Under the pieces are notes generated by a model, which was not told the origin of the DNA, did no database searches, and saw only the letters and a program-made list of their open reading frames with translations. Shown in pieces: positions 64-1,152 of a stretch of DNA of 1,152 nt; position 1 is the first letter of the stretch, and each line of letters begins with the position of its first letter. A program made the position numbers and the translations under genes. Source of the stretch: a phage; sequence record OR846282.1; one strand, written 5' to 3'.

Positions 64-258
64 TTACCATAAGCCCTGCTCCTCACCTTCGTTCAGATAG
101 TACTGCTCTGCAATTAAGTCTTCTACCTGCTGGCGAGCACGCTTCGCCGTCTCTGGGGCGTGCTCTGCCAGCTCAAGTAACTTCGCCTCCATACCTGCGA
201 AGTCTTCTTGGAAGTACATTTCAATTACTTCTTCTACTGCTGCGTTGAAAGTTGCCAT
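64..258 (-). CDS. small, strongly acidic hypothetical protein (64 aa), function unknown
   Basis: ATG at 258..256 preceded on the minus strand by GAGGA (268..272) with a 9-nt spacer; TAA stop at 64..66. Same strand as the exonuclease and overlaps its 3' end by 25 nt (234..258). Composition counted from the translation: 15 Asp/Glu versus 4 Lys/Arg, no Cys. No recognisable catalytic motif. Confidence 0.55.
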   Translation of the reverse strand: MATFNAAVEEVIEMYFQEDFAGMEAKLLELAEHAPETAKRARQQVEDLIAEQYYLNEGEEQGLW

Positions 259-1152
259 GCTTTGTATTCCTCATTGTAAGCATGGAGGGACTCGCACCAT
301 TTCTGGAGGTCGCCCTCCAGTAGGGAGTGTATGTATTTGAAAGCTGAGTCGTCGGGGCTGCGTCTAAGAAAGAGGCATTCCATCTCAGCTAGGAAATTCT
401 GGTTAATCTCTGCATAGGCAGCAACTACTTTATTAGCTGCTTCCTTCTCGTTAGTGCAATCCTTGAGGAACTCATAAGCCCCAGCAGGACCAATGTTCTT
501 CCCCCTGTACTTGGTAAGGCCAGCGACGTTATCCGCACCGTCACCCATCAGGCACTGCGCATAGAAGAACGCTAGGCCGTGGCCCACTATCTTACCTCTG
601 GACTTATCGTAATCAATCCAGCCGTAAGCATCGTCTATAGTATCAACCGTGCCTAGCTCAGGGTTCCACTTAGGACCTCGGCACAGGTTCATATCCTTGT
701 CGAAGCTGCTTACTAAGCCACGTTCTCCAAAGACTCTACTGTCAGCAATAATAAGGTCGTCAGCTTCCTGCTGATAGTCGAATACAATCTCTATACCTTG
801 AGCAGAGTATTCATGAGGATTGGCTATGAGATGCGCTTTGAGAGGCGCTTTGAGTGGTATCTCCGTCCGCGTAGCCCGCTGACCTTGGTAGGGCTTAACG
901 GACGGCAGTAGGAAGCGCCCACACTTGAAGTTATCAGATGGAGGACTATAAGCCCGTACAGTCTTAGAGTTAACATAGAACTTATCCTCGAGGACTAATT
1001 GATAGAAGCGCCGGATAGCTGTATCCAAGCGCTTCACTGTACTGGCTGCCTTGTAGACATGCTGGTCACTATCTAGTAGCAGTACAGTATCTGAGGGAGC
1101 AGGTGGCGCTAACTGAGCGCCAAGCTCGTTTAGGTTAATGCCACCAACGTTC
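234..1152 (-). CDS. 5'-3' exonuclease / flap endonuclease (FEN / Pol I 5'-exo family, phage type); 5'-partial, N-terminus runs off the window
   Basis: ORF-track 267-aa product (234..1037) carries the acidic active-site motifs of FEN-type nucleases: EADD at 756..767 (cf. E. coli Pol I 5'-exo EADDVIGTLA), DKD at 693..701 (cf. GDKDMAQL) and GDGADNVAGL with GDGADN at 528..545 (cf. GDSSDNIPGV), plus a YQGQR element resembling YKxxR. My hand translation of the same frame upstream of 1037 has no stop to the window edge (…NVGGITLNELGAQLAPPAPSDTVLLLDSDQHVYKAAST-VKRLD…) and contains LLLDSD at 1065..1082, matching the N-terminal LILVDGSS-type motif. No ATG/GTG/TTG lies in that frame between 1038 and 1151, and the GTG at 1037 has no convincing Shine-Dalgarno. 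Stop codon TAG at 234..236. Confidence 0.85.
   Translation of the reverse strand, partial: NVGGINLNELGAQLAPPAPSDTVLLLDSDQHVYKAASTVKRLDTAIRRFYQLVLEDKFYVNSKTVRAYSPPSDNFKCGRFLLPSVKPYQGQRATRTEIPLKAPLKAHLIANPHEYSAQGIEIVFDYQQEADDLIIADSRVFGERGLVSSFDKDMNLCRGPKWNPELGTVDTIDDAYGWIDYDKSRGKIVGHGLAFFYAQCLMGDGADNVAGLTKYRGKNIGPAGAYEFLKDCTNEKEAANKVVAAYAEINQNFLAEMECLFLRRSPDDSAFKYIHSLLEGDLQKWCESLHAYNEEYKAWQLSTQQ
268..272 (-). promoter_or_regulatory. putative Shine-Dalgarno (GAGGA) for the 64-aa ORF, embedded in the 3' end of the exonuclease gene
   Basis: Minus-strand sequence reads TGAGGAATACAAAGCATG; the purine-rich GAGGA sits 9 nt upstream of the ATG at 258..256. Confidence 0.4.

Follow-up and report, generated by a model that had tools for sequence, protein, structure and literature searches.

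Gene Organization at the Locus

The stretch of DNA analysed here (the window; 1,152 nt of sequence record OR846282.1) derives from an Escherichia coli phage of the Slopekvirinae (Autographivirales, KP34/phiKMV-like). It is 99.6–99.7% identical to the GenBank records OR844702, OR848265, OR850875 and OR846985, 80% identical to vB_EcoP_P64441 and 73% identical to vB_EcoP_PAS7. The four near-identical records come from one project and are labelled “Listeria phage”, “Salmonella phage” and “Escherichia phage”, with at least OR844702 bearing an UNVERIFIED_ORG flag. The hosts assigned in the OR84/OR85 records are probably not to be relied on; cross-contamination is one conceivable cause.

Both genes of interest are encoded on the minus strand (Table 1). 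The exonuclease CDS is 5′-partial, with about one to three codons lying beyond the window edge and a 305-amino acid fragment inside it. Its 3′ end overlaps a 64-codon ORF by 25 nt in the −1 frame, and the same layout is found in every relative examined. The Glu codon GAG within the Shine–Dalgarno (SD) sequence of this small ORF does not vary among the relatives. Two relatives (L060 and L064) carry a 9-nt insertion in the overlap, homologous to positions ~240–245, which lengthens both proteins by three residues (…LTTDSTQQ / MAINNRFN…) and gives an overlap of 34 nt. In another (L004; IMGVR_UViG_3300010266_000002), the site homologous to 258–256 reads ACG instead of ATG, a change that also gives a W to R replacement in the exonuclease. 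This genome would therefore be without a canonical small-ORF start; gene loss, initiation at a non-canonical codon and a sequencing error are all conceivable.

Table 1. Coordinates of the genes and RNA features discussed in the text.
Feature	Position	Strand	Details
Exonuclease CDS (5′-3′ exonuclease / FEN-like, phrog_107)	234..1151	minus	stop TAG 236-234
64-codon ORF (phrog_6923, hypothetical)	64..258	minus	ATG 258-256
Shine–Dalgarno sequence GAGGA of the 64-codon ORF	268..272	minus	9 nt before AUG
8-bp hairpin CCAUGCUU-N15-AAGCAUGG	255..285	minus	stems 255-262/278-285; SD in loop
CCCUCCA, alternative 7-nt partner of the hairpin 5′ arm (319-313)	283..289	minus	relatives with the “CESLHA” module only
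Hairpin	303..320	minus	mRNA 5′-CUGGAGG(320-314) GCGA(313-310) CCUCCAG(309-303)-3′

The Hairpin and Its Chance Expectation

The inverted repeat that a first-pass annotation had reported in the exonuclease coding region is real. On the plus strand, CTGGAGG at 303–309 and CCTCCAG at 314–320 are complementary at seven of seven positions, separated by tcgc at 310–313. The repeat does encode LEGDLQ, as stated there, these being residues L278, E279, G280, D281, L282 and Q283 of the exonuclease fragment, and the spacing of about 45 nt to the small ORF is likewise correct, with 44–45 nt separating the hairpin from the ATG on the minus strand. The annotation was also right in proposing a stable mRNA hairpin, but it gave the plus-strand sequence; since both genes lie on the minus strand, the mRNA reads CUGGAGG-GCGA-CCUCCAG. 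The loop is of the GNRA type, a form imposed by the Gly-Asp codons (GGN GAY) and therefore no independent evidence.

A 26-mer containing the hairpin folds at −13.3 kcal/mol; the hairpin accounts for 90% of the ensemble and has five G-C pairs among its 7 bp. The RNA folding that had been recommended as a check places the hairpin in both the minimum free energy (MFE) and the centroid folds of a 201-nt context. The palindrome also folds on the plus strand, at −11.4 kcal/mol.

Hairpins of this kind are common. Of dinucleotide shuffles of the window, 34% contain one or more perfect 7-bp hairpins (loop 3–8), 6% having a stem with GC ≥5 and 8% a 4-nt loop. When the codons of the exonuclease gene are shuffled synonymously, a 7-bp hairpin appears in 18% of the shuffles and a GC-rich stem in 6.5%. 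A near-identical 43-kb genome contains 28 such hairpins against an expectation of 17.9 ± 4.8, and about 8 of these match the 303–320 hairpin in stability. As an observation on a single sequence, the hairpin is not beyond chance, and any significance therefore rests on comparative data.

Other repeats are found in the same gene. A second perfect GC-rich 7-bp repeat (TGGCGCT aactg AGCGCCA, 1104–1122) lies near its 5′ end and served as an internal control; it keeps all of its pairs in only 3 of 17 relatives and is therefore most likely due to chance. A 7-bp repeat at 342–390 (AGCUGAG/CUCAGCU, 35-nt loop) brackets a variable “MECLFLRRSPDD” segment, is present in the MFE fold of the window and retains at least six of its seven pairs in 14 of 17 relatives, with no covariation seen. 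Beyond the window, the genome of OR844702 (L070) holds three diverged repeat copies (5648–5784, 39102–39238 and 40935–41074; 66–78% identity, ~130–190 nt), candidates for small RNAs or regulatory repeats of the early region.

Conservation of the Stem among Relatives

The comparison set consists of 17 further distinct exonuclease-gene DNAs that are 71–86% identical to the window at the nucleotide level. These were taken from GenBank (P64441 and PAS7), from IMG/VR (L004–L006) and from contigs that carry the genes for 12 of the 31 clade proteins. Anchor scans of IMG/VR gave no relatives beyond L004–L006, a looser pattern adding one unrelated chance match, and the single close relative gained from a metagenome scan was a duplicate of L004.

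All seven pairs are present in 13 of the 17 relatives and at least six in 15, with a stem sequence identical to that of the window in 12. The departures are few. In L065 a CTG to TTG change retains a U.G pair, and in L059 a CAG to CAA change breaks the terminal pair. An Asp to Glu replacement in L067 breaks the top pair and leaves six, L006 (LDGKLQ) is left with 5 bp, and PAS7 (LDDELQ) has three of seven pairs broken and a fold of only −1.5 kcal/mol. The losses in PAS7, L006 and L067 thus arise through amino-acid replacements and are uncompensated. As for the loop, 10 sequences have GCGA and 6 have GAGA, with GAAA in L006 and ACGA in PAS7. Seven other perfect repeats of at least 7 bp in the exonuclease gene, examined as controls, are fully kept in only 0–8 of the 17 relatives.

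The pairing is thus mostly kept (94.4% of cells paired), but the compensatory changes for which the first-pass annotation had advised looking are absent: none of the seven pairs shows a double change among the relatives, and the covariation score of the hairpin equals that of shuffles. The data therefore give sequence conservation and not a proven structure. The opposite pattern, synonymous changes that break the stem, had been named as the one that would speak against the element. Of the 15 relatives that keep LEGDLQ, just two have any synonymous change in the stem, with one pair broken in L059 and a U.G pair retained in L065. One-sided stem changes that are wobble-compatible number three in the mRNA sense and two in the antisense, giving no strand asymmetry. 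RNAalifold retains the hairpin and finds no larger conserved structure around it, with one double change in 31 pairs and the remainder invariant or wobble.

The amino-acid conservation has a ready explanation. Of the 31 clade proteins, 24 have LEGDLQ(KW) unchanged between flanking residues that vary. An AlphaFold model (pLDDT 88.5) has L278-E279 as a turn after helix 270–275 and G280-Q283 at the beginning of the last helix (280–303), an arrangement of turn plus N-cap. With the peptide at a helix start and unchanged in most clade proteins, protein constraint can explain its conservation. The homologous turn is variable in other Autographivirales clades (TTPS, LPDY, TVPE, LRPA and others). What protein constraint cannot explain is the conservation of synonymous positions.

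Conservation at Synonymous Sites

Synonymous entropy falls over the two arms of the stem. The flanking Leu codon 5′ of the stem has 1.32 bits, with four codons in use, and the values then drop to 0.61 bits at the first stem Leu (CTG) and 0 bits at the stem Glu. The loop Gly rises to 0.98 bits, followed by the stem Asp (0 bits), the second stem Leu (CTC; 0.31 bits) and the stem Gln (0.31 bits), and the 3′ flanking Cys and Glu return to 0.98 and 1.0 bits. The gene mean is 0.95 bit per codon. Together the five stem codons sum to 1.23 bits, and none of the 137 comparable windows of the exonuclease gene has a lower value. The single synonymous site of the loop, Gly GGC/GGA in a ratio of 10 to 7, has about the variability of the gene average. 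The synonymous positions of the stem are thus held constant while the synonymous site of the loop and the flanking codons drift.

An amino-acid-matched permutation of columns gave p = 0.0006 for the stem codons, and an amino-acid-wise rank combination, computed by hand and more conservative than the permutation, gave ~0.04; both values are approximate because they derive from only ~18 sequences that are related and recombining. When the 25 Leu columns are ordered by variability, both stem Leu codons (CTG and CTC) fall within the lowest three, in a gene whose Leu codon usage is nearly flat. The conserved CTC accounts for 15% of Leu codons, and GAC, at 40%, is the less used of the two Asp codons. 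Across the whole gene, the relatives have ~60% of their synonymous codons in common with the window. Random synonymous recoding of LEGDLQ yields seven Watson–Crick pairs with P = 0.006. Judged from these comparisons, purifying selection seems to act on the nucleotides of the stem beyond the requirement of the protein in this E. coli Slopekvirinae clade.

Near-invariant synonymous sites occur elsewhere in the gene. The codons for EINQNFLA (~388–410, minus strand; GARATTAAYCAGAAYTTCYTAGC) show them in all relatives and form the window of second-lowest synonymous entropy, with no promoter-like match there.

Deeper Clades and Recombination

The main KP34-like (Drulisvirus) group has a perfect 7-bp hairpin of unrelated sequence (CCCAGUC-UACGU-GACUGGG) over P-S-L-R-D-W, within about 7 nt of the homologous position and just before or over the conserved Trp (loci L011–L045). 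Its stem is constant in 30 of 34 sequences, with variation at the third position of the loop (CUA/CUG), in a set too closely related for a test of constraint. In a KP34-like subgroup of four members the hairpin is reduced to ~5 bp through synonymous changes. Stable local folds occur at the homologous position in the Melnykvirinae and, marginally, in smaasur, and no hairpin was found there in phiKMV-like, Vibrio, Acinetobacter and Pectobacterium phages, PA28 or phiKDA1. Evidence that a hairpin is conserved here across deeper clades is suggestive at best.

The 3′ end of the exonuclease gene is a mosaic (200–420 and the corresponding region of the relatives). The upstream modules EMECLFL and EAECLWL are joined to the downstream modules CESLHA and AEALHQ in all four combinations, a pattern pointing to repeated crossovers within ~100 nt around the hairpin. 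This agrees with a conserved block acting as a crossover site, which is regarded as following from its conservation and not as causing it.

Initiation of the Small ORF

A distance of 30 nt separates the end of the hairpin from the SD sequence of the 64-codon ORF, placing the hairpin outside the footprint of the initiating ribosome. Two further pairings could in principle link it to the start site. Its 5′ arm can pair with the CCCUCCA segment at 283–289, a pairing missing from relatives with the AEALHQ module. The 8-bp hairpin at 255–285 is predicted to sequester the AUG of the small ORF and is present in the MFE and centroid folds of the window. Its pairs are all kept in only 6 of 17 relatives, it is confined to genomes with the CESLHA module and destroyed with the AEALHQ module, and it is probably not a conserved element. 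The 303–320 hairpin itself overlaps neither the SD sequence nor the start codon, as an occluding hairpin would, and the pairings downstream of it are unconserved. The proposal of the first-pass annotation that the hairpin modulates coupled translation is thus unsupported, given its distance from the SD sequence and AUG, and the coupling model was rejected because both the 283–289 pairing and the 255–285 hairpin vanish in AEALHQ-module relatives.

The 5′ arm also contains an SD-like GGAGG located 13 nt before an AUG at 300–298, which is out of frame with the exonuclease and in the frame of the 64-codon ORF. The [A/G]UG at this site is dictated by the Lys-Trp codons. A mini-ORF or N-terminal extension starting here was rejected, the −1-frame stops of the relatives lying at differing places.

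Comparison with Known Classes of Element

A scan of the window against Rfam 15 at a permissive E-value gave a sole match, a chance SOX2OT hit (E = 3.7, 209–263). The hairpin is GC-rich and similar in size to intrinsic terminators, including class I terminators of the T7 T-phi type. It differs from these in lying within a coding region and in having no U run, the 3′ flank being AAAUGGUG on the mRNA and UAGGGAGU on the other strand. A sigma-70 promoter and terminator scan made no call at the site. With an mRNA 3′ flank of AAAUGG, no U-tract and no scan call, a terminator was rejected.

RNase III sites are irregular duplexes of roughly 20–30 bp in intergenic RNA, and in T7 a promoter and an RNase III site follow the exonuclease gene. 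The position of the hairpin is reminiscent of T7 RNase III sites such as R6.5 downstream of gene 6, which likewise lies at or after the end of an Autographivirales exonuclease gene. The phage hairpin, in contrast, is a perfect 7-bp stem inside codons, against the ~20 bp needed, and neither context folds nor RNAalifold add conserved pairs to it; an RNase III site was accordingly discarded. No RNase III sites are known in the middle-gene transcripts of phiKMV/KP34-like phages. A −1 frameshift stimulator was also rejected. There is no X XXY YYZ heptamer 5–9 nt upstream, the sequence CAC (C/T)CC CTA abuts the stem, and stops at varying places interrupt the −1 frame of many relatives. Nor is the element a repeated motif, promoter-family member or operator, the 18-mer being unique in the genome and in no repeat family; the 7-mer half-sites of the palindrome occur in four copies each, which is the chance level. 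The stem shares its short length and GNRA-type loop (GCGA, GAGA and GAAA in these phages) with the boxB elements of lambda and P22, but there is no N-like antiterminator or nut context, the stem is unrelated, and the GNRA loop is dictated by codons.

The hairpin also resembles REP-type and other protective hairpins, intragenic or intercistronic, that block 3′ to 5′ exonucleases in bacterial and phage mRNAs. These are likewise short, GC-rich stem-loops without a U-tract, located near cistron boundaries in polycistronic messages, with conserved sequence and little covariation, and a stable stem-loop, as the stabilizer or processing-barrier class would call for, is present in the predicted folds. 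The phage hairpin differs from the REP-type class in being single-copy and inside codons with a 7-bp stem, and the likeness in function is putative. Among the marks of an evolutionarily supported structure, excess synonymous conservation was observed and compensatory changes were not. The ONT-cappable-seq papers found concern Pseudomonas phages only and do not mention the hairpin site.

Interpretation

The tentatively favoured interpretation, held at somewhat less than an even chance, is that the hairpin is a selected mRNA stem-loop that may act as a decay or processing barrier at the cistron boundary. The 18-nt element, in the DNA equally a palindrome, would fold into a stem-loop that is small and stable within the polycistronic mRNA of the middle genes. 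It would be a local, cis-acting RNA structure located where the exonuclease message gives way to that of the small ORF and endonuclease VII. Its most plausible role would be a barrier to 3′ to 5′ exonucleolytic decay or a processing landmark that determines how stable the mRNA segment upstream is relative to the one downstream, and a switch for translational coupling would be less plausible. Of the functions raised by the first-pass annotation, a processing or stability element seems the most compatible with the conservation pattern. In its favour are the 13 of 17 full stems at 71–86% identity, the first rank among 137 windows with p = 0.0006, stem Leu codons of low variability beside a variable loop and flanks, and control repeats that decay. 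The recoding probability of 0.006, the invariance in 24 of 31 clade proteins of a turn that is variable in other clades and the dominance of the hairpin in the local ensemble point the same way. Against it stand the complete lack of compensatory changes, the uncompensated pair losses of PAS7, L006 and L067, a short stem with no U-tract and no Rfam match at a distance from the SD sequence, and deeper clades without a consistent hairpin at the position. Because PAS7 lacks the hairpin, the element would be dispensable or replaceable. The more specific proposal, that a cis-acting RNA element, either a decay or processing barrier or a site for an RNA-binding protein of phage or host, sets the ratio of exonuclease to small ORF, endonuclease VII and RNA polymerase, is unlikely as it stands.

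Between a selected, clade-specific stem-loop and a coincidence of coding, the balance is roughly even. The palindrome may quite possibly be a by-product of the conserved LLEGDLQKW peptide with no function as an RNA or DNA structure, the low synonymous diversity then reflecting hitch-hiking, local fluctuation or a preference for certain codons or codon pairs. Coincidence was already allowed for by the first-pass annotation and is still viable given the lack of covariation, although synonymous changes in the stem are rare (2/15). Perfect 7-bp hairpins are common (18–34% of shuffles; 28 in the 43-kb genome), the conserved peptide is placed by AlphaFold2 at a confidently modelled helix start, and the amino-acid changes of PAS7, L006 and L067 lose pairs without compensation. 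Other blocks of the gene are conserved at the nucleotide level, with the EINQNFLA codons ranked second, and the hairpin has no evident mechanism and no Rfam or terminator match. What a coincidence accounts for less readily is the first rank of the stem codons in synonymous conservation (matched p = 0.0006) and the choice of CTC and GAC, neither of which is a preferred codon. The footprint of conservation, moreover, consists of the two arms and skips the third position of the loop and both flanks, and control hairpins in the same gene decay.

An element acting at the level of DNA is improbable. The 18-bp palindrome would here be a candidate site to which a dimeric protein binds, or a conserved linker where homologous recombination reassorts the two halves of the exonuclease 3′ region, in keeping with its perfect symmetry on both strands, the plus-strand fold of −11.4 kcal/mol and one-sided changes that show no strand asymmetry (three wobble-compatible in mRNA, two in antisense). 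The four module combinations also imply repeated crossovers in ~100 nt spanning the hairpin, but recombination is to be expected wherever a block is conserved, as a result of the conservation and not its cause. The palindrome is unique, with half-sites at chance frequency and no repeat family, and no candidate binding protein was identified. Regulation of the translation of the 64-codon ORF, whether through the hairpin, its SD-like GGAGG and anti-SD-like CCUCC arms or a mini-ORF, is very improbable. The GGAGG does lie 13 nt before AUG 300–298 in the frame of the small ORF, and in the window the 5′ arm can pair with 283–289, adjoining the AUG-sequestering hairpin. The distance of 30 nt to the SD sequence, the loss of the alternative pairings in the AEALHQ module, the lack of a conserved mini-ORF or extension and an AUG forced by Lys-Trp codons all argue against it. 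A terminator, RNase III site or frameshift stimulator, to which a stable GC-rich hairpin near a gene boundary of a T7-like phage might suggest a resemblance, is effectively refuted by an anatomy of no U-tract, a 7-bp stem, no slippery heptamer and no Rfam match.

Implications for Phage Biology

If the hairpin is a coincidence, it is one of ~20–30 chance hairpins in the genome, and the stakes are modest either way. Should a cis-acting element be confirmed, the KP34-like analogue would make the hairpin position-conserved in Slopekvirinae middle-gene mRNAs. Real constraint on the stem would constitute a compact case of a phage coding sequence that carries a second message at the RNA level, and would offer a handle on the tuning of expression within the long middle-gene transcripts of phiKMV/KP34-like phages. 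It would also be a caution against recoding the exonuclease gene freely with synonymous codons when therapeutic phages are engineered.
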